A DNA stretch of 64,000 bases from an uncultured virus (IMG/VR IMGVR_UViG_3300028883_000006) (IMGVR_UViG_3300028883_000006), one strand, 5' to 3'; counted from the stretch's first letter, positions 15,301 to 46,997 are shown. Made by a program: numbers and translations. Notes: generated by a model not told the origin, from the sequence alone.

Positions 15301-18300
15301 TACCCTTCCTGCAGGAAAAGATTGAGAAATACAAGGATAACCCGAATATTACACTGAGGTTTGAGAAAGCAATCAAGTTTATCCAGGATAATCCATTACC
15401 ACAGAACAGACACCTGTATAAAGTATTGATACGCAAAGGGAGAAAACCCGGAGAACTGAACTTTATTAATTTCCTTGAACCTCTTAAAAATAAGGATGTG
15501 GTCCTTATCAGTGACCAACTGGCAAGGGAAGGTATAACAGACGCATCACTTGAACACGCACTTTGGGATATTACACCTGCAAGGGTGCTGTATAAACAAT
15601 TATCACGAATACTGGGATCCGATAAGGAAGCATCATTATTACTGTCCAGGGCAGGTATTGACGGATTTATTTACCCTACCGAAATAAGCGACAGGGAAAA
15701 AGGCAGGGGTAAAGGAGTTAACTATGTAGTATTCAGGGAAGATAATATAACTGTTAAAGACAGGTTAAGCTACAGGCTTAGTGATGAATCCCCCGAGAAA
15801 AAAGGACCTCCTAAAAATCTTATAAAGACCGCAGCAGAGAAAAGACAGGCTACATGGCAGGACAGGATGTTATCTGTTAAGAAATGGCAAAATTCTATAC
15901 GGGGTAGAGGGGGAATGATAACCGAATCATCAAATCCTTATCGTCAGGAAAACCTGTCACATGGAGCCGTTAAACACGCTGTTGAGCAATATAATGAGAA
16001 ATATGTGGATCCCTTACTGGAAACCATAGGTAACATGATGAACACAGCAGGTATTGATTATGAGGAGGTAAACCTGTATATGAAAGCCAAACACGCCCCG
16101 GAACGCAACGCTGAACTAAGGGAGAGGACTGGCAAGGATGTTAATGCAGGTATGACAGACGAGGCTGCAAATGAGATTATAGACAGGTTTGAGAGTAAGT
16201 TTACAGAGGAAACAATTAACACCCTCTGGAATAAGATTAATGCTGCTACAGGATATACGCTAAAGAGATGGATGCAGGATGGTTTTATATCGACTGACCT
16301 GTATAAGAAAATAGCAGGTATGTATGACTATTATGTACCCCTGAGAAACTGGAAGAAAACAGAGCTTGATGAGTTTTACGAATACCAGGGAGAGGATGTA
16401 GGCAAGGTGGTTAACCCGCTAAAGACGGCAAGAGGTAGAAAATCAGAGGCAGATGATCCCCTGCAGTATATAGTCAACATGGCTCATACGGCAGTTGTGA
16501 CAGGTGAGAAAAACCGTATCAAACAACACGCTGCAAGGCTTGTCCGTAACAACAAAGATATGACGGACCTGCATAAGTTTAAGAAGATATACCGGGTATT
16601 TGACGGTTCGTATGATGAAATGGGTAATAAGAACTATTACGAAACAACCGAAAGACCGGCACAGGATATATGGGATAGAGGATGGGTACTAACAAAAGAG
16701 GATACCCAACACATGAAGGGCAGGGCTATGTCACAGGCTAAAGAGCATGAGACAGAAGTATGGATCAATGGCGATAAGTATGTTATGGTTCTTCCGGCTG
16801 ATGTATCCAATGCACTGAATAAGACTCCTTCCAGGTGGGATAATGTGGCTTATATAACACGAAACAACTTTGGAAGGCTTACCAGGTGGCTGTCAAGCAA
16901 CTTTACCAGTAAAAACCCTGCCTTTATTCCCATAAACCAGATGCGAGATTTACAATATGCAGCACTGGCCCATTATTGCAAGGGTGATGCAAAACAGTCC
17001 TTAGAGTTTATGAAAGCCTTGCCTAAAGCCAGGGGAGCAATAATAAGGTATCTGAAAGGCAAAGGGGAGGCTGATAACAAGTATGACCAGATGTACCTTG
17101 ATTTTATGCTCAATGGAGGAGAGACAGGATGGGTACACCTGAAGGATGTGGACCAGCTTGCTAAGGAAATGGAGAAGGAACTGGCAAGGATGACCGGGAA
17201 GAATACAGTATGGGATAAGACCATACATAATAAATACCTGAGAATAGCCGGTCAATGGATGGAACACATGGCTATAAGGAGTGAGAACCTGTCAAGGTTT
17301 GCAACGTATATCATTGCAATAGAAGCCGGTAAGTCGCCCAAGCAGGCTGCCTTTGAAGCTAAGGAGATCACTGTGAACTTTAACCGCAAGGGTAGAGCTT
17401 CATCCTTGATGGGTTCCTTATATGCCTTCTTTAACGCATCCCTGCAGGGAGGTAATAATATATATAACCTGGGCAAGAAACATACTGCTAAATTTTTGGG
17501 CGTAGGTGCCGGATTTATGGCAATGGGGTTCTTGTCTGCTATGCTAAACCATTTATGGGGTGGAGATGATGATGAAGGAGATAATTACTATGAGGGTTTG
17601 AATGATTATGTCAAGTATAATCACCTTGTCATAAAAAGCCCCTTCGGTGACAGGTTCTTGACTATACCCCTGCCTCATGGATTCAGGTGGTTCAATAGTC
17701 TTGGTGTGATAGCTTACGAAAACCTGTTTACCGATAGCAAAACGATAGGGGACAGCGTAAAAGATGCTGTTTCTAATGCCTTTGCATCAATATCGCCTGT
17801 TAACCCAGTTGAGTTCCTGGGAGAAGATGAGCAGTTGACACTAAGGCCCCTTGTTCCAACAGGACTAATGCCCTGGTATGATATATGGGTTAATGCTGAT
17901 TTTACAGGAAGGAACATACACAGGGAACCGTTTACTAAAGCTCTTGATGGAAGAATAGCTGATTCTTCACTTGGGCAGTCCTATGTAAACCCGGGTGTCA
18001 AATGGCTTACCGATAACCTGTTTAAGGTAGGTGGTGGAGATCCTGATGTAGGAAGTAAATTTTACCTTGATGACAATGGTAAGATACATAAGGTAAGCGA
18101 TATGTTCGACAAGAACCCTTCAGATATCGAACACATGATTGAATACTACCTGGGTGGTAGAGGAACATTCTGGAATAATCTTGTCAAGACCAGTGCATCT
18201 ATAGTACAGGGAGCCGGAGAAGTAATGACCGGTGACAAGGACTTTCAGAATATTGTTGATGATGTTAACATGAATAACCTGCCTATTGTACGCAGATTGC

Positions 18301-18596
18301 TTCGTCAGCCCTGGAATAATACTGTATATAGCAAGTACTATAAAATAGTTGATGAGATAGAGGATTATAAGTCACTTATAAGTCAGCGCAACAAAGGACT
18401 GGAGAGATATGAGAAGGAGGGATTTACCCCTGAGTGGCAGATAAAGATTGATATGCTTAATATGTTAAAAGATGACCTTGAATACATAGATGAAGATATT
18501 AAGCTGATAGAGGATCCCCGACAGGTTAAGGAATTTAAGGGCCTTCAGGAGATGTTGATAAGGAATTTTATAGAAGATATATCTAAATATGAGTAG
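387..18596 (+). CDS. Giant polyvalent (DarB-like) protein, 6069 aa: InPase-like domain, two DNA methyltransferases, SF2 helicase, JAB/RadC, metallopeptidase, ADP-ribosyltransferase, LPD38-like C-terminus
   Basis: Motifs: SEAQKKAGNYKKGH/DGDQVDVF/FDEHKVMLGF (~3520-3960); DIPY and DPFAGSG (~4780-5430); NATGTGKT, DESHH, SATP, QAEGRINR (~7720-9540); EPSAGHG and NPPF (~9690-10330); HNHPSG (~11340); HEVVGH (~14680); WHGSP..GTGEG..YGWGMYFT (~15050); IPLPHGF (~17665). Confidence 0.9.
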   Translation: MPTSLKDPDKKKKIQDPKDRMKEIQKMFALPSVDFGPGVEALPDLDAQVLGDDYLPQTDEQKQFEKEWGEKGPGEKFGLGWKKGVNWLKGGVGNFFAETLPQISKMGTALAPGGVPYNPLFPNSKEMYEGMVEASDNDESFDNLIDRVTQASEEKFEIAEGIKGKGFVFNAANMLPQAMGTVAAAVATAATGGAPALAAIPALVSGGNLLVLSSAVVGDQLRQYDKYVEETGKDPNELERWGVALLAGAAEYASEKMRLNMALDKFVPNGLTGKLMGNILRKNPEVSSDILSKWAKKFPNKYQKLIGFIRKVNIQGMEEGGEELFAEFIQTLAQNIYLDPEHKHTIGDAVQNSLRAAAGGYAMGGFLGPITVSSNKAYHYLRRNKEGKVTLLETKDGDVFEYVGTGKNGQMTVIDNDLRPKTITREDIAKSITLKPQEVSQFLDAYKQGQENLPQLERELVNKSAERQIRSFGEKISFEGSDMISSVQDKEGNILFLKSEGPKALGKKTFVALNAETMELVILKETDIAERNEISLDEWMQSEMEAYYQTIQQSEEVAAQQQVQAEVEAEMQEKEEETPLAPGEEINYMDRKWSISEIGTDGTLYVDEITEDGVGESIEIKPEDAANIQRTGQQEEEQPGEQEEIPEQELPDYSFNGKEVTKGYVKGRIRVAKSLNDLNGLAWKNDKDLDKMVAERFPEAVPEYKVGKDKADRDEIIGIIEGATDISDLEGVTVKNDDELTEMLVAKATELNPEVIEEINKAEPLKEEEEIKAEPEQKAEETTKETSGVDETTTVVGETDPAWRHIRNNIVSEKGKSRKERSEFQRVAQEMLRSGMPVNEVIGKINKKYSLNIPLFFDVEGAAKDIKEKPPEKPPTGGAGAMVVKPQPEKAEGEVDQKEPTEREKYGLEQLRPTYRGTTLSEWEAIQDGGVISSDNMQEATWITDKKEYADDYAKSKDDGVIIEFKPEVIDKSAVESGQENDETGIRLGKGLTIDDILRVTNAKGEVIYEAGKEATPVEKEEKTEQEEEQAPSKQAEVEKESAKVDTSPSEAQKKAGNYKKGHVSIQGMEISIEQPALSIRSGKDSKGNKWSVMLHNPYGYFRRTEGKDGDQVDVFLGDNLESKKVFVIDQVVPGTGEFDEHKVMLGFENFKEAEDNYLANYEPGWKGLGEIVEMDIDEFKEWLGNGTRTKKPVGELLKEQEDKQEEVKRQAYNEFSEKYKSIENIETLNTAIEELFALQRKVGYLKHGDPDYPWGTIGKGWGFSDELANKTPGEQNWEREEVGLTPDKKGWAVMNRIDLAKSPNGYWASEYSWSLGSSGGGSAPSIHSKAFATRKEALRHGLERFIENMSKRKEGAETKSDIAYAEKLLKEAKAKLNEIGGPLKKAEFAGDILEKPKTQKEQVKQVLKGEESKSIKEIADETGIVEPSIRRILGVGTKQGEFERVDKGVYKLVTEDGKTTAWIHAGDAVEVLPRLAKEGFKADMIFLDIPYTTSAIKSGNRELNFDKISPQQFDKVVQSISQIARSEDTPVLFMHSTSKTGTKDMEEYLQVIEKEFKPVAKGFYTKYYRNGNRVTMPMRKDFLPPEAIVLMTKSGEFTPISKEFDLDFDLVRPKGYPTEKPAEMLRKLIEMTTYEKDMILDPFAGSGVTGAEAVKAGRDVTLIEKSEKAVEGVIKPRVERAAKESEPTVSTEGITSPAIEITKDEWAVMDVTKTLKSPYRRQYLKNLGIDEERYKEIKDSLYRKKILLANGGITGLGLAVVDGLYKRAGVKSIVGRSYEKPDSPVWNLWKKEEPVSQEQGLRESWRETLIKAREAAVSVFTKEELDELREKGLDWTDREAIVKAVDNKLNEKPTEEGLAPEVGPGEERMNDPGTDLAKILKPGMVFRNIYIGPSYKWKREDYGIYSSEGYPVQGMEVLTVKRVEDKQGRPGYHHYWVTAIRTDAPRKKDGGFKQNVLDAEESIYNFVLHRGRIEETHAPVPGTTGENMERIFVIDDRASGVKPKPATQQQEIKPVEKKKPARKKKPSRTDKVLERDPESFLEATLQFFVKGGRIATQDFVAHTGFKPKTTEFRKFIWAIKNTGQSLDVFNEALQNSFGMEDKGPMDMINEVIEIMKMYPSRGKMLNALEDIQNQQEPQDREDIPDMEVIEADLEDMDRDEDFDYILNSETYGPIIDEFTNWEGYFNVGNLLAKIEADPFYFTTFPYGLSEQELKDFKKTLKNDGKSIQERIKAAYRAFGDSEEENTPGSSEGDEIRTGAEGERGEEEEIDEAELFNDIAKKEEDVEHRPIDTERHSQAGTSEVQADEQDVPEKPVDSSEGRRKTSESTGKGTGTELSTTGTRKDSPGDMGDIAPVSGERGDRQVHKEDERPKSDEGFAGDLFTAGGVDLHGERQARPRREGQEGDRGDVEKTRKVSSYKVKAQLEAESIPVKENDVQNIKDTLPFLFPEQHDDVIKTERRFQEGKGMLFSNATGTGKTYTGLGVAKRFDKQGKSNILIVVPTDIKAKDWIRDGRNLNLDIRQLDNTQDGGDKINVTTYANFKQNPELLKREFDLIIYDESHHIMANQKGQNTAGTEAHFKISNRNYGWALERLKANTGLWKREAEIQRRISEWNAENNSNLDKGENQVSWEYSNEIEPLERELEEVKAKQDEVLPDLQEKAKTASERTKVVFLSATPFKSHFTLRYANDYLYKMGSDSRMESGYNEGSSEDQFFISNFGYRMRYNKLTAPEAEVDVSALERMFVDNMIKKGSFAGRMLQTDYDYSRDFPIISNKGSVSLNEGIRLLLSINKNTHPEFEALDKYIHFRFYNYLYSNQLFEVLKAGMMIPRIKQHLEMGRKVVIFHRYKQAKVDHPFDFSNAYYEYNDWYNKIRVRKYLRDDKKAIEAWEKFQAKYSEYLGLKLDLRNPIQQLQDAFPGLLVFNGDVPKKVRKERQALFNDPNSGSNIILIQEQAGREGIDLHDITGNKQRVLINLGMPVDPITALQAEGRINRIGLMSNAVFEYPVLGLDIEKYHFGSKINERIGTTENLSLGNKARDLRRSFKDGFLNADVFSPNEQQGTGGKKFDMPETLERDDPYQKARALYYTNKKKTSREKSAEGIDYFATPEPLGFKMWQWLQLNRGERGLEPSAGHGAISRFAPDGVELTSIEPSNVLFSKLMVNAEGKKVNQRFEDFYVGNKFEGVAMNPPFGTGGKIAMEHLEKAFGHLSWKGGRVVAIIPAGPSMDKRLDKFLHGEDENGKQLHPDAFLRAEINLPSVSFERAGTSVNAKIVVIDKVYKADQYDIPGPVNIDLSSHTNINEFFDALENVEVPAKISKEDRKVEEVKKPERWNIHHIVRFKDNEGKIRVGTIRNIVEVAGVQRHFFIVQSAEEMPESFDIKNIIGFASEKDLAMKELDDVFTGKASTVTPRQEKLMTTSRELELIKQQHTKEGYDLHTIKLNIRLDKDDFYSLKRMAKNEGGYYSSYKGQGAIPGFNFKDEQAAKNFLAKATDFLNNRNFEVNERPQTYRQAEKEPVILAESAFDQELPLDSGSAEVQREEDTGQDRSGRNRPSLRKLGPGEFARLEVKYTIDKNLVFNGKEKIESQDDVAFLFRKLEDKAVENIFALHVLENGKSVIQHISVGSNAGSIVNFNAIADGINRFNPVKTYFIHNHPSGNINPSRADITILSKLKDAFGDVINPLGIIIDIDSGLYGTFGSIEGFENSYEIPKQAPEKEYKVYRFDRMVFNKDIDYLHEKHAKIKEQDEAAQYASAQRHTSGNKLSALILSRQNKIVANIHYPYSNLNENRHDFMADTRAYCARFNASGLILYGRGISEVDVIALNRIKEELKTTDINLLDAFDMKRIEAGEGGGASIMMEPQTDYTNGLQAEIERTREELRKVTKARQDKKNELSKRINTQGALFAGEVFGPTLEQKTTFDVDMDATQENIKRILSDYDNQIARLQKRLADLEKQAERAAIENKGQGVLFRLADEQVFYSNTQKALDVIKQDKAPWTQWQAMLVKNGAKQSEMDWLDLEGKFKDRKSVTREELQQHIDRSKIDIKEIDMSKTTDPDDEMDYNRAYNYLQETINKHDSERYELRLSLAKSGVSVEDAEGWIRQLDEQNFNNFNTNKMADAVNNILKYLPDYDINAYHDVVDAHKRAEDRFLAAKSRYVERDYTKYSRWTLPGGKNYKEILLTLKKPVKAIDPAEEQARADRWEEEYADAPFDIQERGATLEGDFLSGHWDEPNVISHVRLNERTDTQGRNILFIEEIQSDWAQKIRREGGVVNTPERLKETLQPYLDDLIKRDKALNDIKKQLDDVLAEMREYGLPQGASSGEIEWFELGDYNFLAARNERFRRLMERQKEVRSNKEYLEIDDEIERIRERAILLGRSRKELIKRREAAEEGLQNARTTYYDRKASLTENMVPDMPFKKTSEWAGLAMRRMIRYAIDNGFDAIAWTTGQQQAERYELSKQVQKIKARKLDNGNYAVDITTNEGEEYVGFGGELTENRLEEYIGKELAKKIVEDTGKTNDGKRIEYTGTDLEVGGEGMKSFYDSILPSVANKIGKKYGARVQSLELRSSNKGVTYFTYNPDGTPMKFASHSLEEAKEEIKKNNGYIVPITFDYTIERDDAGKYIVIREGIDLFDSYDIEAVVDFVQGVTKVHTMPITPELFNAFKQGVPLYRSIETPKGKTLEEQLEKPTMAGKAKKEVLGRIELLSKKYGIDINAVDTIEDLPKEIRDQVIRSGKSKRVQGLYDPASDSIYVILNNNHSFDEILKSIMHEVVGHKGVRRLLGEEWTEVMNLVYNGMDIEDIQALERKYNTTDKDTIADEYLALMAERNVNPTLLQKAIARIRQAIRKLFKLNYSYNDVINLLADTRKMLRESQKPKASDYTNAQDYLDAVEAWHGSPYAGIQNFTTGRVGTGEGYQSYGWGMYFTDKREVAKGYAEALAKYDEYYDKAETFIGQKSAKWIEKAVFYSGYDHNKVIPFLQEKIEKYKDNPNITLRFEKAIKFIQDNPLPQNRHLYKVLIRKGRKPGELNFINFLEPLKNKDVVLISDQLAREGITDASLEHALWDITPARVLYKQLSRILGSDKEASLLLSRAGIDGFIYPTEISDREKGRGKGVNYVVFREDNITVKDRLSYRLSDESPEKKGPPKNLIKTAAEKRQATWQDRMLSVKKWQNSIRGRGGMITESSNPYRQENLSHGAVKHAVEQYNEKYVDPLLETIGNMMNTAGIDYEEVNLYMKAKHAPERNAELRERTGKDVNAGMTDEAANEIIDRFESKFTEETINTLWNKINAATGYTLKRWMQDGFISTDLYKKIAGMYDYYVPLRNWKKTELDEFYEYQGEDVGKVVNPLKTARGRKSEADDPLQYIVNMAHTAVVTGEKNRIKQHAARLVRNNKDMTDLHKFKKIYRVFDGSYDEMGNKNYYETTERPAQDIWDRGWVLTKEDTQHMKGRAMSQAKEHETEVWINGDKYVMVLPADVSNALNKTPSRWDNVAYITRNNFGRLTRWLSSNFTSKNPAFIPINQMRDLQYAALAHYCKGDAKQSLEFMKALPKARGAIIRYLKGKGEADNKYDQMYLDFMLNGGETGWVHLKDVDQLAKEMEKELARMTGKNTVWDKTIHNKYLRIAGQWMEHMAIRSENLSRFATYIIAIEAGKSPKQAAFEAKEITVNFNRKGRASSLMGSLYAFFNASLQGGNNIYNLGKKHTAKFLGVGAGFMAMGFLSAMLNHLWGGDDDEGDNYYEGLNDYVKYNHLVIKSPFGDRFLTIPLPHGFRWFNSLGVIAYENLFTDSKTIGDSVKDAVSNAFASISPVNPVEFLGEDEQLTLRPLVPTGLMPWYDIWVNADFTGRNIHREPFTKALDGRIADSSLGQSYVNPGVKWLTDNLFKVGGGDPDVGSKFYLDDNGKIHKVSDMFDKNPSDIEHMIEYYLGGRGTFWNNLVKTSASIVQGAGEVMTGDKDFQNIVDDVNMNNLPIVRRLLRQPWNNTVYSKYYKIVDEIEDYKSLISQRNKGLERYEKEGFTPEWQIKIDMLNMLKDDLEYIDEDIKLIEDPRQVKEFKGLQEMLIRNFIEDISKYE

Positions 18597-18598
18597 CC

Positions 18599-20581
18599 AT
18601 GAGGATAGTAACTAAAGATTTGAAGGATCTCAAGACTAACACATCCCTGGGGATGCGTAAGCAGAAGATCATACGCCTGGAAACAGAGGTAGACCAGGAA
18701 GATGTAAGGGAGAATATACACCTCCTTGAGCAATGCCGTACTTACTGGGAGAGCCTGAGAGATTTCAGGGACCGCAGGAGGCGTAACCGTAGATATTACA
18801 GAGGCGATCAGTGGGGCGACCTTGTGAAGGATCCTGATAGTGTCAGTGATGATTATATTACTGAGAGTGATTATATCAAAAGGCAAGGGAAAGTACCTTT
18901 AAAGCAGAACCAGATCCGTCAGCTTGTAAAGAACCTGATAGGTCAGTATCGTAGCAATCCGTCAAAGAGTATCGTCATTGCACGACAGAGAGATGATGCC
19001 AGTCTAAGTGATATGCTCAGTAATGCTATTGAGTATGCTTCACAGATCAATATGGCAGGAGAGCTTGATGCAAGGCTGTTTGAGGAATACGCTTTGTCTG
19101 GTGCCCCTATCCAGAAGATAGGCTACAAATACTGGAAGGAACGCAACCAGGAAGATGTTTACATAGAAAATGTTAATCCAAACAGGATGTTCTTCAATTC
19201 AGATGTTTCGGATATACGTCTGAAAGACCTCAGGCTGGTAGGTGAAATTATTGATGCCCCCCTGGATGAAGTTATTTCAACATTTGCTAAGAGTAGGGCA
19301 GACCAGGAAAGGATAAGAAACCTTTACAGGGGTGTATATGAGAAAGACCTATATAGGAGAGAAGGACTTACTGCAGACACACTTGATCACCTTGATTTCT
19401 ATATACCGGCAGACCTGAACAAAGCGAGGGTGCTTGAAGTATGGTACCTGGTTGGAGAGACAAAGACATACGCACATGACCCCCTTGATGGTTCCTATGA
19501 TATTGTTGACTATACCCTCAAAGAGATAGCACAGCAAAACAGGGACAGGTTAATATTTTATAAGGAGCAAGGTTATGAAGAAGAAGAAATACCTCTTATA
19601 GAGGCAGAGGAGAAATATGAGCAGATATGGAAGGTTAAGTACCTTACACCTCATGGTCATACCTTATGGGAAGGAGAAACACCTTATGCACATGAAGAAC
19701 ATCCTTATGCTATTACCCTTTATCCTTTACTGGACGGTGAAGTATGGGGTTTTATCGAGGATGTGATAGATCAGCAAAGATATATAAACCGGCTTATTAT
19801 ACTGATGGATTTTATGATGAGTGCTTCAGCTAAAGGAGTGTTGCTTGTTCCTGAAGATGTTATACCGGATGGTATGACACCTGATGACTTTGCAAAGGAA
19901 TGGACAAGGTTTAACGGCATAATAGTTTATAAACCCAATAAAGAACACCTGCAACTACCGAAACAGATATCGAGTAATTCAACCAATGCAGGGGTAAAAG
20001 ACCTGCTTGCAATACAGATGCAATTACTGCAAGAGATATCAGGTGTGCATAGTGCTATACAGGGAATGGATGCCAAGAGTGGTACACCTTCATCCCTGTA
20101 TGCTCAGGAGGCACAAAATGCAACTATCAATACTCTGGATTACATGGAAACATTCTCATCTTTCCGTAAGAAAAGAGACATGAAGATGCTCCAGGTAATA
20201 ACACAGTTCTATAAAGAAAAACGGTTCCTGGCTATCAATGGAAGAAGTTTTGAATATGACACTATGGTATTCGATCCTGAAAAGGTCCGGGATCTGTCAT
20301 ACGATATTGTTGTTACCCAGGGTAAGGATACACCTGTATATCGACAGCTTATTGATGATACTCTTATGACATTACTGGAACAACAGTTTATAGACCTTGA
20401 GATGTTCCTGGAACACACATCACTACCTATAGCACAGAAATTACTGCAGAGTGTTAAGGCACGTAATCAGGAAATGACTGAGGAACAAGCAGGAGTAGTG
20501 CCGGAGGATATGGTCAACCAGGTTAACCAGCAGGCTAATCCGCAGGCAGTTGAATTATTAAAGAAGATGGTAAAAGGGTAA
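18599..20581 (+). CDS. Portal protein, P22-like
   Basis: 660 aa; YYRGDQW, NQIRQLVKNLIG, DVIDQQRYINR and EISGVHSAIQG are typical of P22-type portals. Confidence 0.85.
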   Translation: MRIVTKDLKDLKTNTSLGMRKQKIIRLETEVDQEDVRENIHLLEQCRTYWESLRDFRDRRRRNRRYYRGDQWGDLVKDPDSVSDDYITESDYIKRQGKVPLKQNQIRQLVKNLIGQYRSNPSKSIVIARQRDDASLSDMLSNAIEYASQINMAGELDARLFEEYALSGAPIQKIGYKYWKERNQEDVYIENVNPNRMFFNSDVSDIRLKDLRLVGEIIDAPLDEVISTFAKSRADQERIRNLYRGVYEKDLYRREGLTADTLDHLDFYIPADLNKARVLEVWYLVGETKTYAHDPLDGSYDIVDYTLKEIAQQNRDRLIFYKEQGYEEEEIPLIEAEEKYEQIWKVKYLTPHGHTLWEGETPYAHEEHPYAITLYPLLDGEVWGFIEDVIDQQRYINRLIILMDFMMSASAKGVLLVPEDVIPDGMTPDDFAKEWTRFNGIIVYKPNKEHLQLPKQISSNSTNAGVKDLLAIQMQLLQEISGVHSAIQGMDAKSGTPSSLYAQEAQNATINTLDYMETFSSFRKKRDMKMLQVITQFYKEKRFLAINGRSFEYDTMVFDPEKVRDLSYDIVVTQGKDTPVYRQLIDDTLMTLLEQQFIDLEMFLEHTSLPIAQKLLQSVKARNQEMTEEQAGVVPEDMVNQVNQQANPQAVELLKKMVKG

Positions 20582-20614
20582 ACAGTATAGTATTCACATA
20601 AAATAACAATTAAG

Positions 20615-20920
20615 ATGGCAACAAAGAGATTATTATTAAAGGAGGATGAAAACGGACACCCGATTCAGGCATTTGACCTGTCAGCATCAGAAGATATTGA
20701 TGGAACATCAGCATCAGTACAGAGCAGTGCTATTGATGCACCTCTTGTAAGGATATCGGCTGTAGGTGGGGCAGTAAGGTTTCTGATAGGAGCTAACCCT
20801 ACAGCACTGGATACATCACATTACCTTGCACAAGGAAGTTCTATCATCATGCCTATTGTACCAGGTCAGAAAGTAGCTGTTAAAGGAAATACAGCTAACA
20901 TAGCAGCGTGTGGTGTTTAA
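20615..20920 (+). CDS. Small beta-rich protein, probable virion component
   Basis: 101 aa; follows the portal; VRISA..VRFLIGANPTA pattern. Confidence 0.55.
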   Translation: MATKRLLLKEDENGHPIQAFDLSASEDIDGTSASVQSSAIDAPLVRISAVGGAVRFLIGANPTALDTSHYLAQGSSIIMPIVPGQKVAVKGNTANIAACGV

Positions 20921-20938
20921 AAGTAAACATCTATTGCT

Positions 20939-20976
20939 TAGGCTTAATAACCCTCTTTTGGGGTTTAATAAGCCTA
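20939..20976. promoter_or_regulatory. 38-bp inverted-repeat element, copy 1
   Basis: TAGGCTTAATAACCC..GGGTTTAATAAGCCTA; intergenic; same length and arms as 33924-33961. Confidence 0.6.
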
Positions 20977-20993
20977 TGGATATGAAGTAAATT

Positions 20994-21188
20994 ATGAAAC
21001 TTACGGGCATGAAAAAGATACTTGATAAATTTTTGTCTGCAGTCCGTAGGGTAGTAGTTAAGATACTGGCCTTTTTAAAGGACTTATTTTCTGTCAAGAA
21101 AGTATTTAAGATCCTTACCACCAAGATAGGGACTGCCATTACAACCAGTTTCGGAGAGGAATTAAAACGTAAAAATAAAACAAAATGA
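20994..21188 (+). CDS. Small basic protein with LTT-x-G repeat-like motif
   Basis: 64 aa; ATGA overlap with next gene; ILTTKIGTAITT resembles LITTKSGEQLTT in 37987..41922. Confidence 0.5.
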   Translation: MKLTGMKKILDKFLSAVRRVVVKILAFLKDLFSVKKVFKILTTKIGTAITTSFGEELKRKNKTK

Positions 21189-22309
21189 AGAAAATATTGA
21201 TTATTGCATTATTTGCTGTTTGCACCACACTTGCTTATTCGCAGGTAAGTATCGGAGAATTAACATCGGTGAGCAGTAAATCCGGCACAGACCAGTTTGT
21301 TGTAGAACAGTCAGATTCTACAAGGAAGATATCGTTGACGCAACTATTTACTAATGTCACCCTGGCAGGTACATTAACAATGCCGTCACCTTTTACCCTG
21401 GGTTCAACATCTGTTACAACCTCAGGGACTCAATTTAATTACATTAACTCAGCAACCGGCACGACAGGAACAACGACAAGCAACCTGGTATTTAGCGAGA
21501 ACCCTGTTTTTACTGGTGTTCAGAAGGTAAGTACAACCGACACACTGGCAACAAAAGCCTATGCCAGGAGTGTAAGCGGAGGAGGTAGTATGTCATGGCC
21601 TGGTGATGGGATAGCAGTTGCGAGTAGTTCTTCATGGGCAACATCTATAACCAATTCCTCAGGACTTGCTTCAGCATTATCTGATGAAGTAGGATCCAAC
21701 TATGTTGTTTTTAATAACAACTCAACATTAACTGGAAGCACAACGGCTGATAATATCCAGACAGATATACTCCAGGTAGGTGCAGGAGGTAATACTTTTG
21801 GGATTGACTCAATAACAACAGATGGAAACAATGTTAGGATTTATGATGGAGTTAATCAGTTAGTATGGGACGATCCGGATGCCTCTGAAGTGGATATAGA
21901 TACCGTTGCATATATACTGACAGACACTATACCCCTATATGGTGCAGTCCTGGGAGTGGGCAATACAAACGATACGGCTGCTTTTGCTGTAGATAATGTT
22001 ATATGGGGACAATATATTGATGGATCACATAACATAGTTATAACAGAGGTAAGAGCAGTTGTTGCAGGCACTTCTCCAGATGTAGATGTAGCACTCCTAT
22101 ATGATCCTAACTATAAAGATGGCACACCCACAACGGTCCTTTCTTCTGATCTGACAGTCACAAGCACGACTGCAGGAAACTCAACTACCAGTTTCAGTAA
22201 TGCGACAATAGCACCTGGTAACTGGTTATGGTTGCGAGTTGATCAGGCGACAGCCAAGCCGACACAGTTAGTGTTAAGCATATTCGGATATCGAACTGAA
22301 ACAGAATAA
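21185..22309 (+). CDS. Thr/Ser-rich fibre-like protein with Sec signal peptide
   Basis: MKKILIIALFAVCTTLAYS/Q leader; LASALSDEVGSNYVVF and TGTTGTTTSNLVFSENP resemble phage fibre segments; beta-sandwich-like C-terminus. Confidence 0.6.
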   Translation: MKKILIIALFAVCTTLAYSQVSIGELTSVSSKSGTDQFVVEQSDSTRKISLTQLFTNVTLAGTLTMPSPFTLGSTSVTTSGTQFNYINSATGTTGTTTSNLVFSENPVFTGVQKVSTTDTLATKAYARSVSGGGSMSWPGDGIAVASSSSWATSITNSSGLASALSDEVGSNYVVFNNNSTLTGSTTADNIQTDILQVGAGGNTFGIDSITTDGNNVRIYDGVNQLVWDDPDASEVDIDTVAYILTDTIPLYGAVLGVGNTNDTAAFAVDNVIWGQYIDGSHNIVITEVRAVVAGTSPDVDVALLYDPNYKDGTPTTVLSSDLTVTSTTAGNSTTSFSNATIAPGNWLWLRVDQATAKPTQLVLSIFGYRTETE

Positions 22310-22311
22310 TT

Positions 22312-22806
22312 ATGAAAAATTTACTGATAGGTATATTATTAGTTTTATCATGTGCTCTTAATGCACAAACAGTAACAACAAATGTGTGGTACAATACTTC
22401 CACAGAAGGAGGAGGAGGAAACCCTGAAATTATAAGCCAGGGTACTTTTGAAGCAAGCTCTGACTGGAACACTACTCCAGCATGGACAATATCAGATGAG
22501 AAGGCCAATTATAGTGACGCTGATTATGGTAGTCTATATCAGGATCATGGCGATATGCTTGAAACAATGACTGTCAGTACAACTTATGTTCTTTCATTTG
22601 ATATCGTTTCGACTGGAACTTTAAGGTTAAGGATACAAAATTCAACAGGTTCAACTACTTATCGTGAATATGAAAACTTTGCGACAGGAAGTTATGAAAG
22701 AGAATTTACCACTGCTTCAGATGAAAGCACATTCGGTTTAAGGTTTTTTGCCTCAACAAGCGGGGATGCAGGTTCAATAGATAATGTTTCTTTAAAAGAA
22801 CAGTAA
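22312..22806 (+). CDS. Secreted carbohydrate-binding-module-like protein
   Basis: Signal peptide ALNA/Q; EIISQGTFE..W, YVLSFDI and IDNVSLKE match a galactose-binding-like jelly-roll pattern. Confidence 0.6.
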   Translation: MKNLLIGILLVLSCALNAQTVTTNVWYNTSTEGGGGNPEIISQGTFEASSDWNTTPAWTISDEKANYSDADYGSLYQDHGDMLETMTVSTTYVLSFDIVSTGTLRLRIQNSTGSTTYREYENFATGSYEREFTTASDESTFGLRFFASTSGDAGSIDNVSLKEQ

Positions 22807-25800
22807 TGAGGAATATTTTAGCAAGATTATTCATTGTAATATTTATTGCAATCAGTGTTGGGACAAATGCTCAAAGTGTAAAATATGTTGCTACCAACGG
22901 CAATAACAATAACCCCGGAACAATAAGTCAGCCCTGGGCAACATGGATCTATGGTTTCAGCCAGCTTGATCCCGGTGATATTTTATATATAAGAGGTGGT
23001 ACATACTATAAAGCGAATAATGAAGGGGCATTTCAAAAGAACTACATCACTGGAACATCGTCAGACTCCATCTATATATTAAACTATCCAGGGGAGACTC
23101 CGATACTTGACCTAAGCAATATACAGACCGATGAAAGGGCTGATTGTTGGGGTTTAATCACTGAAACTGCTTATGTTCACTTCAAGGGGTTGATCATACA
23201 GAATATGTACGAGAATGATGGTAATGATTTTGTCAATATGTGGCAATTATATGGGTCACATACCTTTGTCGAAAGATGTGTCACAAGATACGGAGGCGGC
23301 AGGGGGATGTATTGTTATGAGGGAGATGAGTTTTATTTTAAGAATTGCGACAGTTATATGCACGTTGACAGCCTTTCAGGGTCCCTTCCCGGGAATGATG
23401 GATATGGTTTTAGTGCTTCTATTCCGAGTGGCAAAAGCATCTATTATAATGGTTGCAGGGCTTGGGATTGTGGAGATGATGGATTTACTGCTGGAGGTAC
23501 AGGGTTTGTTCACTACGATAATTGTTGGTCTTTTGATAATGGAGAGCTACAGGGTGGTGGTCATGGATATAAACTTAATGGAAGTTCATCTGAATCATCT
23601 GGAATACAGAAAAAAGTTACAAACTGTATAGCAGCATATAACAAGATTGCCGGGGCAACAACAAATGACGATGATATAAGTGGCTATTATACTTCTGGAA
23701 TGAATTTATATAATAATATATTTTATCATAATGGTTATCAAGGTAATCAATATTGGGGTTATGGCTTCGTGTTGTGGGATTCCAATAGTGGACAGACAAG
23801 AGAAGAAGATAGGGTTTTTAGAAATAATATTTCATACGGTAATGAAAAGGGGGCTCTCTTTAAAGAGTCTGGTGCCTATTATACTCACACTTACAACGAT
23901 TGGGATTTAGGAGGAGTTACAATATATGATAATGACTTCTTGAGTGTAGATAGCACAGGTATAAGAGGGGCAAGGCAGGCAGACGGTTCCCTTCCTGACC
24001 TGAATTTTCTAAAGCTGACCTCCGGCTCTGATGCGATAGATGTCGGTACTAATGTAGGATTGCCCTATGACGGATCTGCACCTGACCTGGGAGCCTTTGA
24101 ATATGGGGATAGTCCCCCTGATGGAATTTATTATGTTTCCCCTAATGGTAATGACGGTAACTCAGGAAATTATGATAACCCCTGGAGAACGTGGGCAAGA
24201 GCATTTAACGCAACGGAATTAGAACCAGGGGATATTGTTTATTTCAGGGAAGGAGTATATATACAGGATACTCTTAACCTTAACACAAACTGGTATTGGT
24301 GGCCTTATACTCCAGGCAGAGGTATGAAAATTACGGTGGATGGAGCAGTTAATAACACTATTAAATTTTGGGCCTATCCAGGCGAAACACCTATACTGGA
24401 TGGCACTAATGTTCATTCACATTTTTACACCTATAAGGATAATACCGGGATTAAAGGAGATGAAGTTAATTATATTCATTTAAAAGGACTACATATAAGA
24501 AATTTCAAACAGGGGAGTGGTGCAGTTGATAATGTTTATCAACTATTATTAGAAGATTCAGACAATGTAACCATTGAAAACTGTTCATTCTACAACGGTG
24601 GAGGAAGGGGTGTGACAATAAGGAGGAGTGGTAATATTGATATTATTAATTGTGATGCATATAATAATTATGATCCTTATGGAGATTCCGGTGTGGATCC
24701 GGGAGATGATGGTTACGGTTTTACCTTAGTCCATGAGGTAGGGGATAATATTAAGTTAGATGGATGCAGGGCATGGAAGAATGGGAATAGTGGTTTTTAT
24801 GATGGTAATAATACCGGATATACAGAATATGATAACTGTTGGTCATTCAGAAATGGTAAACTACAAGGAGCAGGGGATGGGTTTAATCTTGGATGGATCA
24901 ATGAGTGTTCAATGACCACAAAAAGGTATATTCATAACTGTATCGCTGTTTATAATAATGCTGCAGGATTTAATGATAATAACTCATTGGCAGATGCAAA
25001 CTCCTATATAAATGAAAAGAGGTACTATAACAATACATCTTATAAAAATTTACATGGTTTTATCTTGTATGAACCTCATAATAATAATGATGACTCCCTT
25101 GAATATAGAAGGAAGTACAGGAATAATATAGCTTATCAAAATACAACCAGTCCTATTACAGCCTATGATGGAAGTTATTATACATCAGAAAATAATTCCT
25201 GGGATAATGGGATTGCCACAATAACGGATTATGATTTTATTTCCCTGGATAGTACTGGTATGTCAGGGGCAAGACAATCAGACGGATCCCTTCCTGACCT
25301 TAATGACTTTTTAGAGCTTTCTTCAACATCGGATGCTGTTGATGCGGGTAAATATGTTGGACTGTCATACAGTGGTAATGCACCCGATATTGGAGCCTAT
25401 GAGTCTCCCTATACTGGTAGCGGGGGTGGAGGAGAAGATGATACATATATAATAGCAGACCATACTATTGTTGATGATTACGAAGATATACCACAAGAGT
25501 ATATTGATGAAGTAAAAAAAATGTGGTTATCGTATGCAGGACAGTCCCATTCTGGAGCAATAAGGGATGGATTAGTCGCATTGGAGGCTATAGACAGTAA
25601 GTACCAGGTTAATGTAACCGAAGAAGGTACACCAGAAGCATACACAACCTCTCATCTCAGGGCAAGCAGGGCTACATGGGGCAGCTATTATAGTTCTTCA
25701 GGATGGACATATAACTATTCAACATGGTCTTGGTTTGTTCAATCTTTGGGTATATCAAGGACAAAGGCAGGAATTTTTTATTGTGACGATAATAACTTAA

Positions 25801-26627
25801 CATTAGGTGCTATTGGATTTGGATGGTGCTGGGATTCAGAGATTGATAGTCCTTCCGAATTTGGACAGTATATATATGCCACAAAACAATATGTTGAATA
25901 TTGTGAGGATGAGGAAATAAATACCACACCATTCTTTACTACCGGAACAGTAGATGGAGGAGAAGATACATTTGGAGAAACAGGATACAATAAACATCTG
26001 GGTTATGAACAAATGAGAGATACGGTAAAAAACGGTTACTCAAGAGTATTATTCGATTATGCCGATATCCTTTGTTATAATAATTCAGGAGCAGTAAATA
26101 CAACTTCATGGAACGGACACACCTATCCTATAATTCATTCAGATAACCTATCTGGTGAATATACAGGGCATATTGGAATGGTTGGTGCTATAAGACTGGC
26201 AAAAGCAATGTGGTGGATGCTTGCAAGAATAGCAGGATGGGATGGGACCTCCTCAGGAGGACCAGAAATAGAACTACCGTCTGTATCAACAATACAGGTT
26301 TATAATATCTCTAAGACTAAATGTGAAGTAAGCGGTAATGTTTATGATACTGGTGGTGGTACGATCTCAGCGAAAGGAATATGTTATGCTATATGGTCTA
26401 ATCCAAACATAGCGGATGATCACACGAATGAAGGAGCAGGATCGGGGCAATTTAGTTCAGTAATTAACAACTTGATTCCTAATACTACATATCATGTAAG
26501 GGCGTATGCCACGAATGAGGAAGGAACTTCTTACGGAAGTGATAAAGAATTTACAACACCTAAAAAGGCTCCTGGTGTGTATAAAGGGAAGATAGGTTTA
26601 TATAACGGTGTAAAAATAAAATGGTAA
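22806..26627 (+). CDS. Secreted protein with two PL9-like right-handed beta-helix domains, an alpha/beta domain and an FN3 domain
   Basis: Signal GTNA/Q; twice YVxxNGxxxNxG..PW.T, PGDI.Y.R.G.Y, YPGETPILD and PDxGAxE; FN3-like PNTTYHVRAYATNEEGTSY. Confidence 0.8.
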   Translation: MRNILARLFIVIFIAISVGTNAQSVKYVATNGNNNNPGTISQPWATWIYGFSQLDPGDILYIRGGTYYKANNEGAFQKNYITGTSSDSIYILNYPGETPILDLSNIQTDERADCWGLITETAYVHFKGLIIQNMYENDGNDFVNMWQLYGSHTFVERCVTRYGGGRGMYCYEGDEFYFKNCDSYMHVDSLSGSLPGNDGYGFSASIPSGKSIYYNGCRAWDCGDDGFTAGGTGFVHYDNCWSFDNGELQGGGHGYKLNGSSSESSGIQKKVTNCIAAYNKIAGATTNDDDISGYYTSGMNLYNNIFYHNGYQGNQYWGYGFVLWDSNSGQTREEDRVFRNNISYGNEKGALFKESGAYYTHTYNDWDLGGVTIYDNDFLSVDSTGIRGARQADGSLPDLNFLKLTSGSDAIDVGTNVGLPYDGSAPDLGAFEYGDSPPDGIYYVSPNGNDGNSGNYDNPWRTWARAFNATELEPGDIVYFREGVYIQDTLNLNTNWYWWPYTPGRGMKITVDGAVNNTIKFWAYPGETPILDGTNVHSHFYTYKDNTGIKGDEVNYIHLKGLHIRNFKQGSGAVDNVYQLLLEDSDNVTIENCSFYNGGGRGVTIRRSGNIDIINCDAYNNYDPYGDSGVDPGDDGYGFTLVHEVGDNIKLDGCRAWKNGNSGFYDGNNTGYTEYDNCWSFRNGKLQGAGDGFNLGWINECSMTTKRYIHNCIAVYNNAAGFNDNNSLADANSYINEKRYYNNTSYKNLHGFILYEPHNNNDDSLEYRRKYRNNIAYQNTTSPITAYDGSYYTSENNSWDNGIATITDYDFISLDSTGMSGARQSDGSLPDLNDFLELSSTSDAVDAGKYVGLSYSGNAPDIGAYESPYTGSGGGGEDDTYIIADHTIVDDYEDIPQEYIDEVKKMWLSYAGQSHSGAIRDGLVALEAIDSKYQVNVTEEGTPEAYTTSHLRASRATWGSYYSSSGWTYNYSTWSWFVQSLGISRTKAGIFYCDDNNLTLGAIGFGWCWDSEIDSPSEFGQYIYATKQYVEYCEDEEINTTPFFTTGTVDGGEDTFGETGYNKHLGYEQMRDTVKNGYSRVLFDYADILCYNNSGAVNTTSWNGHTYPIIHSDNLSGEYTGHIGMVGAIRLAKAMWWMLARIAGWDGTSSGGPEIELPSVSTIQVYNISKTKCEVSGNVYDTGGGTISAKGICYAIWSNPNIADDHTNEGAGSGQFSSVINNLIPNTTYHVRAYATNEEGTSYGSDKEFTTPKKAPGVYKGKIGLYNGVKIKW

Positions 26628-26631
26628 GAAC

Positions 26632-26874
26632 ATGAAAAATCTGTGGCAACAAATATTTCAGTATGCGCTTGGCGCAGTAGTTGTATTGTCTATACTGGCA
26701 ATAATTGTAGTGCTGATATATGGAGAACTATCTGACAGCGTTCAGGATGCTTTGATGATCTTGCTTGGGGTATTAGCTTCAGGCTTCATGGCGGTTATTA
26801 ATTATTTTTTCGGCTCATCAAAGGGTAGTTCAGATAAGAATGATATACTAAGCAGGGGAAACACAAACACCTAA
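26632..26874 (+). CDS. Two-TM holin-like protein
   Basis: 80 aa; two hydrophobic helices then NYFFGSSKGS, a motif common in phage holin-like proteins. Confidence 0.6.
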   Translation: MKNLWQQIFQYALGAVVVLSILAIIVVLIYGELSDSVQDALMILLGVLASGFMAVINYFFGSSKGSSDKNDILSRGNTNT

Positions 26875-26877
26875 ATT

Positions 26878-27273
26878 ATGGGAGGTTTACTGACTATATT
26901 ATTGGTAGCCGTTGGCTATGCCATTATCAGGGCTAACCACGATAGGTACCTGAGGCAGGGAGAATGGAAAACATGGGCCTTTATAGAAGGACTTGTTATT
27001 GCCTTTGCTATATCTTTTCTGGTGGGTGGCCGGTGGTATGAGATAGGTGTTGGAACCTTACTGTTTGGCTTTACCTTCTGGATTATCTTTGACATAGTGA
27101 TGGGGATATATTTCGGTAATCATCCCCTTTATGTGGGTGAGACGAGTTTTGACCTGGAGATGAGAAAAATGTTTCAGTACACTGAGAAGTGGAAGGGAAC
27201 CTGGTATCTTATGGTCAAACTGGTATGGTGGTTGTTTGCTTTTTACCTTTATTATACATTTGGATTTGCTTGA
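26878..27273 (+). CDS. Multi-pass membrane protein
   Basis: 131 aa; about four hydrophobic segments. Confidence 0.6.
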   Translation: MGGLLTILLVAVGYAIIRANHDRYLRQGEWKTWAFIEGLVIAFAISFLVGGRWYEIGVGTLLFGFTFWIIFDIVMGIYFGNHPLYVGETSFDLEMRKMFQYTEKWKGTWYLMVKLVWWLFAFYLYYTFGFA

Positions 27274-27300
27274 GCTTGCAGAAAAGAAATTACAATATGT

Positions 27301-27338
27301 AAAAGATATTCGGCTTTAAGCCGTATTCTTTCCTTTTC
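27301..27338. terminator. Probable bidirectional terminator between converging operons
   Basis: CGGCT-TTA-AGCCG hairpin flanked by AAAAGA and TTCTTTTCCTTTT. Confidence 0.5.
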
Positions 27339-27375
27339 ATAGGTTTTAGGTTAGGTTTGAGAGAGCTGGTACGAG

Positions 27376-27792
27376 TTACCGGCTCTCTTTTATATACTGA
27401 CCCAGGTGTAATAACTGTCCATGATGCTTTATGTTTTTAAAGGGTAGATCCGGGAACCTGTCAAACAGGTCTGCATGATCAGGATAATATGATGATATAC
27501 GCATGAAATATTCAGGATCCAGAAGGTATATGATATACATTACTTCATAGAACCTGGGAAGAAATATTGTTCCTATCCTATCATTGTCGAATATTTCATG
27601 GCATGAAGGATGAGCCAGTCCGGTATTGAGTTTATTAACCTGCATCTCAGACCTTGTTTCAGACCGTCTAACAAGATGAGCAAGCTGACCATCCTTTCCT
27701 ACCCTGTGACCACAAAAGATGCAAAGAGGGTGGTTTATTTCATACCAGGACTTGATTTTGGCGAGCTTGCTATCTATTTGGGATTGGTTCAT
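27376..27792 (-). CDS. HNH-like Zn-binding nuclease
   Basis: CIFCG, AHLVRRS, NTGLAHPSCHEIFD. Confidence 0.6.
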   Translation of the reverse strand: MNQSQIDSKLAKIKSWYEINHPLCIFCGHRVGKDGQLAHLVRRSETRSEMQVNKLNTGLAHPSCHEIFDNDRIGTIFLPRFYEVMYIIYLLDPEYFMRISSYYPDHADLFDRFPDLPFKNIKHHGQLLHLGQYIKESR

Positions 27793-30336: not shown

Positions 30337-30717
30337 TCAGAAGGGATTATCCTCCTCTATATCTTCTGCCGGTTGATCTTTGGAAGGGGCCTTTGACAGC
30401 ATCTTCATCTCATCGACCATTATCTCCGTCTTGTAATGAGTATTACCTTTATCATCCTCCCAGGACCGGGTTTTTATCCTGCCCTCAACAGCTATCAGCA
30501 TACCTTTGGTGATATGCTTTTCTGCTACCTTCGCAAGGTTTCCCCACATGACAATGTTGTGCCATTCTGTTTCCGTTACCTTTTCATTCTGCTTGCTCAT
30601 ATAGGATTCATTAGTGGCAAGGGGGAAGTTTGCCACTACCTTACCACTATCCAGATATTTCACATCGGGATCGTTTCCTACATTGCCTATCAGTTGTACT
30701 TTATTCACTATGCTCAT
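30337..30717 (-). CDS. ssb: Single-stranded DNA-binding protein
   Basis: VNKVQLIGNVGNDP, TEWHNIV, VEGRIKTRSW; acidic tail ending in PF. Confidence 0.95.
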   Translation of the reverse strand: MSIVNKVQLIGNVGNDPDVKYLDSGKVVANFPLATNESYMSKQNEKVTETEWHNIVMWGNLAKVAEKHITKGMLIAVEGRIKTRSWEDDKGNTHYKTEIMVDEMKMLSKAPSKDQPAEDIEEDNPF

Positions 30718-33961: not shown

Positions 33962-34023
33962 TTAGTTACTTACAATTAATATAGATTTGACTCATACGAA
34001 TCATAAAACCAATTTGTATTATT

Positions 34024-46942: not shown

Positions 46943-46997
46943 TAATACAAAATAGTCGTAAAAAAATTTGATTTAATACATAATTGTACTATCTTTG
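46943..46997 (+). promoter_or_regulatory. Lytic promoter with two operator-like repeats
   Basis: TTTG at 46967-46970 and TATCTTTG at 46990-46997 fit Bacteroidota -33/-7 boxes; TAATACAAAATAGTCGTA (46943-46960) and TAATACATAATTGTACTA (46974-46991). Confidence 0.7.

Follow-up and report, generated by a model that had tools for sequence, protein, structure and literature searches.

Three consecutive genes with predicted signal peptides, encoding fibre-like, CBM-like and PL9-type proteins, behind the portal gene of a temperate Bacteroidota phage

Classical tailspike and fibre depolymerases, such as the P22 tailspike and the K5 lyase, fold in the cytoplasm, lack a leader and carry an N-terminal particle-binding domain, and to our knowledge the parts of tailed phages are all taken to be made and joined in that compartment. 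A stretch of 64,000 nucleotides from an uncultured virus (IMGVR_UViG_3300028883_000006; hereafter the window, with positions counted from its first letter) raises the question of what proteins of this kind might do with export signals. The window derives from a temperate Bacteroidota phage of ~68 kb. Downstream of its portal gene lie three consecutive genes, here called A, B and C, which encode a fibre-like protein, a protein resembling a carbohydrate-binding module (CBM) and an enzyme of the polysaccharide lyase family 9 (PL9) type, and each of them opens with a predicted signal peptide. The features of these genes are as follows, lengths being in amino acids (aa) and a slash marking the predicted cleavage site.

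21185..22309, plus strand: gene A, fibre-like protein, 374 aa, predicted jelly-roll head at aa 240-374
21185..21241, plus strand: A signal peptide, 19 aa, predicted cleavage AYS/Q20
22312..22806, plus strand: gene B, CBM4/9-like jelly-roll protein, 164 aa, leader of 18 aa, predicted cleavage LNA/Q19
22806..26627, plus strand: gene C, PL9-type twin beta-helix enzyme, 1273 aa
22806..22871, plus strand: C signal peptide, 22 aa, predicted cleavage TNA/Q23

A preliminary description of this DNA had claimed three consecutive genes with leaders ending in S/Q or A/Q, placed 3' of the portal gene (18599-20581, PF16510) and followed by two membrane proteins. All of these elements were found where it had placed them, and the order was confirmed by the positions of the open reading frames (ORFs) and their transmembrane (TM) segments. 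The leaders read MKKILIIALFAVCTTLAYS/Q in A, MKNLLIGILLVLSCALNA/Q in B and MRNILARLFIVIFIAISVGTNA/Q in C, and all have a basic n-region, small residues at -3/-1 and Gln at +1. Bacteroidota leaders of the Sec/signal peptidase I (SPI) type follow a Q-rule (PMC5837995), for which we took a basic n-region, an h-region of 8-18 residues, small residues at -3/-1 and Gln at +1; by our heuristic these features are present in A (AYS/Q), B (LNA/Q) and C (TNA/Q). Leaders were called by our own heuristic for hydrophobic N-termini together with conservation among homologs. Each of the three proteins has a single hydrophobic segment, within residues 4-21, while the portal and a 1311-aa protein of the same phage have none. 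The same heuristic finds a hydrophobic N-terminus in 14 of the 66 non-overlapping ORFs of the window, and by our reading only four of those 14 end in the SPI-type A/S-Gln manner, namely A, B, C and a 128-aa protein (45885-46271). The B leader may alternatively be read as lipobox-like (VLS/C).

These leaders do not result from mis-called starts. Gene C has no in-frame ATG, GTG or TTG elsewhere in its first 80 codons, the only alternative in B is a GTG at codon 24, and those in A (TTG4, GTG28, TTG50 and ATG65) fall within the leader or within sequence conserved among homologs. The true starts therefore cannot lie after the leaders. The genes are also tightly coupled, the ATG of A overlapping the preceding stop (ATGA), B starting 2 nt past the stop of A, and the ATG of C overlapping the stop of B.

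Conservation of the leaders among homologs, a check that the preliminary description had proposed, bore out its claim for each of the three genes. The family of A was counted from the best 150 of its 2945 clusters, 7 of which do not start with Met, leaving 143 representatives. A leader is present in 120 of these (112 of the SPI type with Gln, 7 others including 5 with the lipobox LSGC, and 1 lipoprotein signal); among the 23 leaderless representatives at least five have visibly truncated leaders, such as MGIVAFSQ... The mature N-termini of the family diverge widely, so that what is kept is the leader itself and not a conserved domain that happens to include it. In the B slot all nine proteins compared, which belong to three unrelated families, are leader-bearing, and Met1 and Gln19 are their only invariant columns. 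Leaders were likewise found in 105 of 117 Met-starting PL9 relatives of C. As judged from sequence, the leaders of A, B and C are real and conserved family-wide, and Sec export of the three proteins is very probably real.

Gene A matches no Pfam or NCBIfam model. A word-index search gave 34 homologs that share a C-terminal domain of ~135 aa, and 5' of this shared domain they are mosaics of fibre repeats, for example PTFTGTVTIPSPFTLGSTSVT and TDTLATKAYARSVGGG. AlphaFold2 (AF2), run with 27 sequences, predicts residues 240-374 as a jelly-roll with pLDDT >90 and the repeat shaft with low confidence, so that the modelled A has a fibre architecture with a distal globular head. The best solved match of the head is the tail fibre of Agrobacterium phage 7-7-1 (Z 9.4, where the background here is 7-8), and the second best is XepA of PBSX (PDB 6i56; Z 8.8, root-mean-square deviation 3.0 over 109 residues, 13% identity). 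The BFVD matches of A are to uncultured-phage proteins of fibre- or collagen-like type, the best at E 2.4e-13. Members of the A family, though not A itself, match seven PHROG 'tail fiber protein' families, one member each among the 27 scanned. The earlier label 'fibre-like' is thus supported by the predicted jelly-roll head, with a top match to the 7-7-1 tail fibre that lies near background.

The A family is large. A profile search returned 2945 clusters at 50% identity (E <=0.001), 253 of them with E <=1e-30. A single peptide pattern for the A-head subfamily found no member in 185,579 species genomes. When cultured phages were searched at the nucleotide and protein level with the cassette region, A and the proteins P0016 and P0006, no member of the A family was found, and P0006 gave only two short repeat matches; the A-family profile likewise had no match in the sequence parts of Cellulophaga phage phi18:3 and three Bacteroides temperate (TP) phages. 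The head occurs in other settings as well. In the record L013 (65-2389, protein P0178) an A-type head is fused behind a leader-bearing N-terminus of the beta-helix type, in a protein of 774 aa, and in P0007 the A-type head is followed by a further C-terminal extension of 220 aa; these fused and extended heads mark the A head as a shuffled module. The host O-glycosylation motif, as defined in the available part of PMC8550257, occurs 1151 times across the A family against 381 expected, with nearly invariant sites at D247-T248 and D263-T264. A diversity-generating retroelement acting on the A head was considered and rejected, as no reverse transcriptase was present among the scanned ORFs of the window.

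For B only one homolog was found (46% identity), and it bears a leader too. The Atlas model of B (pTM 0.68) has TM-scores of 0.63-0.68 to parts of CBM_4_9, and its nearest feature clusters are viral. No Pfam model matched B above the cut-off; DUF7910 fell below it (E 0.0023) and PF02018 gave no match. The designation 'CBM-like' is therefore kept as a structural lead from the Atlas comparison. A complex prediction of three A heads with mature B gave a median of 0.44 against 0.25 for the control. Directly after the cleavage site, B (22366-22400) and the B-slot proteins of the records L013, L014, L015 and L020 carry the motif Q-(V/T/I)-(V/M)-x-T-(S/N)-V-(W/Y)-(F/Y), and the proteins that share it differ in length. 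This pattern suggests that the processed N-terminus of B-slot proteins may itself be functional.

The product of gene C divides into four domains behind the signal peptide.

22872..24125, plus strand: C domain 1, PL9 (Pel9A-like) beta-helix (PF22842; 1ru4 and 5olq alignments)
24126..25403, plus strand: C domain 2, degenerate PL9-like beta-helix (NF041899 PelN, best stretch 441-866; 1ru4 alignment)
25404..26261, plus strand: C domain 3, ~290 aa, no assignable family
26262..26558, plus strand: C domain 4, Fn3-like (weak fn3; NCAM2 Fn3 E 0.005)

The protein matches PF22842 in two stretches (4.5e-23) and PelN (5.6e-104), and in the PDB it matches 1ru4 (3.4e-26 and 1.6e-22) and 5olq (~1e-21). The right-handed beta-helix of PF22842 and of the solved PL9 structures is thus recognizable in C, in agreement with the earlier reading of this protein as PL9-like, and more than 2212 homologs were found for domain 1. 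Compared with Pel9A, domain 1 retains an Asp (DGYG; DGFG in Pel9A), the DD pair and the Lys (GYKLNG; GFKLGG in Pel9A), and has Thr in place of the fourth Asp. Domain 2 retains the first Asp only, with N-S for the DD pair, Y for Asp and N for Lys. We take the aligned positions to be the Ca ligands and the catalytic base of Pel9A, and domain 1 is apparently, from this alignment, an intact PL9 helix. The mature part of C holds 20 cysteines, that of A and of B none. For residues 868-1160, which include domain 3, Pfam gave no match at E 10, Atlas scores were <=0.84, and PDB sequence comparison returned only Fn3; the guess of an SGNH/CE6-type esterase for domain 3 was dropped, as no evidence supported it. 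Residues 1153-1251 gave tblastn matches in uncultured phage records. A sorting domain of the type IX secretion system (T9SS; PF18962, TIGR04183) was not found in A, B or C (Pfam at E 0.01, NCBIfam at 0.05), while PF18962 is present in 17 of 120 PL9 relatives among the matches listed.

The order of a signal-peptide fibre, a signal-peptide protein and a signal-peptide beta-helix enzyme recurs in unrelated uncultured phages, usually 5' of holin or endolysin genes. In the long-tailed L002 (= L016, L018) the trio stands inside the structural operon, 5' of a 153-aa virion-type protein and the tape measure. In L004 the next genes encode a protein of 113 aa and a TM protein, and the enzyme of the trio adds DUF5018, Fn3 and polysaccharide deacetylase. 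L014 (= L001) has the order SP-111, fibre, SP-295, SP-beta-helix-643 and TM-113 (SP, signal peptide), and L012 the order Tal-like tail protein, endolysin-like protein, lipoprotein-type fibre, SP-PL9, TM protein, 137-aa protein and amidase. The same cassette start runs up to the record ends in L013, L015 and L020; the full three-gene order is read in L002, L004, L014, L013 and L015, the fibre comes directly before the PL9 protein in L012, and the records L001, L003 and L020 end too early to show it. The A and C slots are filled by homologs across these phages, the B slot by at least three families. We read A-B-C as a horizontally mobile cassette of a late operon.

The closest cultured relatives of the window are the Bacteroides temperate phages BS-TP4, BKO1-TP3 and BF1-TP2, with portal identities of 37-39%, and the genes for a giant protein, portal, terminase, scaffold and capsid are common to all four. 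In BS-TP4 and BKO1-TP3 the portal is followed directly by a minus-strand block, and in BF1-TP2 a single 58-aa ORF lies between. In L024, whose portal is 60% identical, unrelated small genes occupy the 2.3 kb after the portal (12020-14358) and end at the homolog of 27376-27792. The cassette is therefore accessory cargo here, and a particle should be buildable without it. The interval between the portal and the minus-strand block (20582-27375) forms a variable cargo slot, which measures 6.8 kb in the window, 2.3 kb in L024 and next to nothing in the three cultured relatives. The nearest record, G001, stops within the portal gene and is uninformative on the cassette.

We propose, with a probability of about 0.45, that A, B and C are host-recognition and depolymerase gear that matures in the periplasm and joins particles at lysis. 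The three proteins would be exported by the host Sec machinery and cut by signal peptidase I at Gln, and maturation in the periplasm would suit the 20 cysteines and Ca-dependent lyase fold of C and the A family's richness in the O-glycosylation motif. As they have no T9SS tail, and the families mostly no lipid anchor, the products should stay periplasmic until the compartments are merged by the action of holin, endolysin and spanin. At that stage the fibre, and B and C probably with it, would attach to finished particles as accessory gear. Tailspikes attach to finished heads spontaneously in vitro, which makes joining at lysis conceivable. A place in the virion is suggested by the location where fibres and spikes are encoded, by the fibre architecture and the excess of glycosylation motifs, and by the universal retention of a leader on A and B despite the absence of disulfides to form. 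An analogue in a cultured phage points the same way. Phage phi18:3 (NC_021794, Pachyviridae) encodes three consecutive proteins, gp085-gp087, with leaders ending in GYS/Q, VSA/Q and LNA/Q, and its record describes them as structural or tail proteins 'based on experimental MS/MS proteomics analysis' (MS/MS, tandem mass spectrometry). As in the window, the leader-bearing trio is followed by small TM proteins and an endolysin, and it stands apart from the main structural block; unlike in the window, gp085-gp087 have no Pfam domain and no sequence similarity to A, B and C, and the phage belongs to another family and infects another host class. No paper commenting on the leaders of gp085-gp087 turned up.

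Several observations weigh against a role in the particle. The cassette is missing after the portal in all four backbone relatives, and its hopping between backbones of short-tailed type and long-tailed ones is easier to reconcile with a function outside the virion. According to the available part of PMC12694917, the retroelement-diversified and presumably receptor-binding protein of BS-TP4 is the 2645-aa gp14, in tail position, and the printed N-terminus of gp14 has no leader. The conserved part of the A family is the C-terminal head and not the N-terminus, the reverse of most tail fibres, and the leader of C runs straight into the catalytic helix with no N-terminal docking domain. The O-glycosylation argument is also weaker for the cassette itself than for the family, since A has 6 motifs against 3.25 expected (p ~0.08, not significant), B has 0 against 0.99 and C 7 against 4.53 (neither significant), and the family-wide excess sits partly in conserved repeat motifs. 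A, B and C have no sequence match in cultured phages, and only short stretches of C are matched, in four uncultured phage records; phi18:3 is consequently an analogue only. Moreover, MS/MS on purified particles can detect co-purifying proteins. We infer cleavage, periplasmic retention, co-transcription with the portal operon and, above all, attachment to virions.

A quite plausible account, though one we hold with less confidence, is that the products never enter the particle and act as free exported enzymes, periplasmic at first and released at lysis to cut or bind capsule or exopolysaccharide. Such enzymes may free progeny, prevent sticking to debris or destroy receptors against superinfection, and a few relatives may be lipid-anchored. 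The accessory nature of the cassette (0 of 4 backbone relatives) and its movement between unrelated backbones agree with this account, as do the construction of C, built like a bacterial secreted PL9 enzyme with the leader directly before the catalytic helix, and the linkage to TM or lysis genes in the window, L004, L012 and L014. XepA, the second-best fold match of the A head (Z 8.8), is an 'exported protein' in the PDB, and the available part of PMC10367356 reads the Q-rule genes of Porphyromonas gingivalis phages as membrane-modifying. However, lysis would release a cytoplasmic enzyme equally well, and folding does not explain the leader on the cysteine-free A and B. A long modular fibre with tail-fibre repeats is odd for a soluble factor, proteins that lack a T9SS tail cannot reach the surface before lysis, and MS/MS is the basis on which the phi18:3 trio is annotated as structural. 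The preliminary description had offered two alternatives, periplasmic maturation of parts that join the virion at lysis or a module for glycan remodelling at the surface. Their shared premise of export is strongly supported by the starts and the family-wide leaders; the interpretation as a whole is supported in part.

It is improbable that the cassette is lysogenic-conversion cargo, that is, a secreted glycan-binding and lyase set expressed from the prophage to serve host foraging or surface remodelling. The phage is temperate (integrase 44461-45636, repressor-like gene 46274-46918), the cassette occupies a variable slot that holds other cargo in relatives, and the PL9 relatives are secreted enzymes common in bacteria, with a T9SS tail in 17 of the 120 listed. 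Such expression would nevertheless have to contend with the absence of a -7 motif on the plus strand at 11195-21793 and with genes that abut or overlap on the portal strand, with no promoter motif between them and a hairpin at the end. In a living lysogen the enzyme, having no T9SS tail, could not leave the periplasm, the single pattern for the A-head subfamily found nothing in the 185,579 species genomes, and another leader-bearing protein (45885-46271) occupies the classic moron position between integrase and repressor. Still more remote is the idea that the leaders are no export signals at all, being mis-called starts or hydrophobic N-termini with another role, such as an uncleaved membrane tether. 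In its favour, the capsid protein also has a hydrophobic N-terminus and yet must act in the cytoplasm, and PMC10367356, in the part available, suggests that capsid leaders are removed by the prohead protease. This idea is contradicted by the lack of any alternative start in C, by n-, h- and c-regions with small -3/-1 residues and Gln at +1 in all three proteins, by retention in 120 of 143 A-family representatives despite differing mature N-termini, by the invariant Gln19 of the B slot and by the leaders of 105 of 117 PL9 relatives.

Periplasm-matured gear that joins at lysis, the reading we prefer, has partial parallels in known systems. Phages of P. gingivalis (PMC10367356) also have genes with Sec leaders that expose Gln, read there as use of host secretion, and capsid signal peptides; in the available part of that paper, five genes of unknown function are read as outer-membrane modifiers, with no fibre/CBM/lyase cassette, no link to tails and no family-wide analysis. 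XepA is an exported protein of a phage-like element (PDB 6i56) whose beta-sandwich resembles the A head, from a Gram-positive host. Its gene presumably lies between the tail-fibre and holin/amidase genes of the PBSX lysis cassette, and we take XepA to be a pentamer and not a fibre. Bacterial PL9 enzymes (Pel9A 1ru4, BT4170 5olq and T9SS-secreted relatives) share with C the fold, the aligned acidic and Lys positions of domain 1, the leader directly before the helix and a C-terminal BT_4170-like segment; in contrast to them, C has tandem helices (the second degenerate), a domain of ~290 aa and Fn3, and no T9SS tail. As with the classical depolymerases, a fibre and a beta-helix enzyme that cuts glycans are encoded late and close to lysis genes, but C lacks a docking domain.

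Literature searches gave no description of Sec-exported tail fibres or depolymerases in tailed phages, and the Hankyphage paper uses the lack of signal peptides in phage retroelement proteins as a mark of phage origin. The preliminary description had singled out the locus as a candidate for an undescribed system. This holds for the exported fibre and depolymerase cassette, which was not found in the literature, and does not hold for the Q-rule and the capsid leaders, which are already in print (PMC10367356, in the part available). The window adds to this a delimited set of three genes that moves as a cassette, figures for the extent of the A-head family and the frequency of its leaders, a PL9 enzyme whose tandem helices include one degenerate copy, and the finding that the cassette is cargo in a slot that relatives fill differently. 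We tentatively extend these results to a broader proposal, in which Bacteroidota tailed phages might build their particles in two compartments, a swappable set of Sec-exported, pyroglutamate-capped and O-glycosylated fibre, lectin and enzyme joining cytoplasmic heads and tails at lysis. If this were true, receptor-binding proteins that mature in the periplasm would form a large class that has gone unrecognised, namely the A-head family with its 2945 clusters (50% identity). Leader-bearing and cassette-borne members of this family in tail-fibre and depolymerase positions challenge the view that assembly is confined to the cytoplasm; at minimum they would add a class of exported effectors to those known from phages, and this in a phylum that is dominant in both gut and marine communities. 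Host-range prediction would be affected, as the search for receptor-binding proteins at present looks to proteins without leaders; depolymerases made recombinantly may require export, disulfides or host glycans; and the interpretation of virion proteomes would be touched as well.

The cassette is flanked by the following features.

20615..20920, plus strand: 101-aa ORF of unknown function, opening the block missing from the backbone relatives
20994..21188, plus strand: 64-aa ORF, its stop overlapping the start of gene A (ATGA)
26632..26874, plus strand: 80-aa membrane protein, 2 TM segments and a polar C-terminal tail, holin-like by shape only
26878..27273, plus strand: 131-aa membrane protein, at least 3 TM segments
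27311..27323, no strand assigned: terminator-like hairpin CGGCTTTAAGCCG, between converging transcription units, after the 131-aa TM gene

The 101-aa ORF has no Pfam or PHROG match and no counterpart in BS-TP4 or L024, and the 64-aa ORF matches no Pfam or PHROG family. The 80-aa protein matches PHROGs of unknown function (phrog_9990 at 1.7e-5, and two others). Alignment of the 131-aa protein to the TM proteins that follow the cassette elsewhere gave 33% (L012) and 19% (L014) identity, a weak likeness. The Bacteroidota -7 motif TAnnTTTG does not occur on the plus strand at 11195-21793, and the arrangement of the genes fits co-transcription of the cassette with the portal operon. The evidence for this is weak because the scans stood at chance overall. 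Sigma-70-type promoters numbered 36 against 37.5 expected and TAnnTTTG 59 against 60.7, so that only positions were used, and the hairpin count in the region is at chance level, with only the position of 27311..27323 being suggestive. Considered as a moron, the cassette is absent from all four relatives and has a hairpin after the 131-aa TM gene; the scan, a weak one, gave no -7 motif, and the starts abut or overlap the upstream stops. Elsewhere in the window TAnnTTTG occurs 42 nt 5' of the scaffold gene (33982-33989) and at 46990-46997, in the divergent repressor/early region, the latter also with TTTG at -33 spacing.

The remainder of the window is arranged as follows.

387-18596: 6069-aa ORF, directly 5' of the portal
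18599-20581: P22-type portal (PF16510, 3e-45)
20615-27273: cassette block
Minus-strand block: crAss001_48-like gene, NinB and large terminase (31678-33693)
Plus-strand operon: scaffold-position gene, SU10-type capsid (35057-36421), three small genes, 1311-aa protein and amidase
44461-45636: integrase
46274-46918: S24/HTH repressor-like gene
Early genes: RecT, YqaJ and DnaB

The 6069-aa ORF is partially homologous to proteins of BS-TP4 (5391 aa) and L024 (at least 3330 aa), its counterpart in BKO1-TP3 is annotated 'DarB-like antirestriction', and it looks like a polyvalent, probably packaged protein. In the minus-strand block, 30337-30717 resembles a single-stranded DNA-binding protein by our own reading of the sequence, with no dedicated search made. 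The gene adjacent to the terminase in the three cultured relatives is annotated as rhomboid, namely as an intramembrane protease in BF1-TP2 and as a rhomboid domain in BS-TP4 and BKO1-TP3. The SU10-type capsid protein starts with the hydrophobic leader MKNNIFYYGTKILGFALFVAVLLVF and has an internal Met at residue 39; its BS-TP4 homolog (L005, 24293-25735), 30% identical, has a similar N-terminus, MKKTMSFFCRITLMILAFVTGASSG.

Directly 3' of the amidase, 42590-43192 encodes a 200-aa protein with one N-terminal TM anchor and five Bacteroidota O-glycosylation motifs against 0.68 expected (0 of 500 shuffles reach five), which may be a periplasmic, spanin-like lysis component. The gap between integrase and repressor is a classic slot for lysogenic-conversion genes or morons, and it is there that the 128-aa protein with an SPI/Q-rule leader (NTLSA/QQ) is encoded, on the minus strand at 45885-46271. 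Amid the early genes, 57935-58291 encodes a predicted lipoprotein of 118 aa (MISS/CNEEK), and the acidic residues after its Cys presumably resemble the surface-export signal of Bacteroidota.

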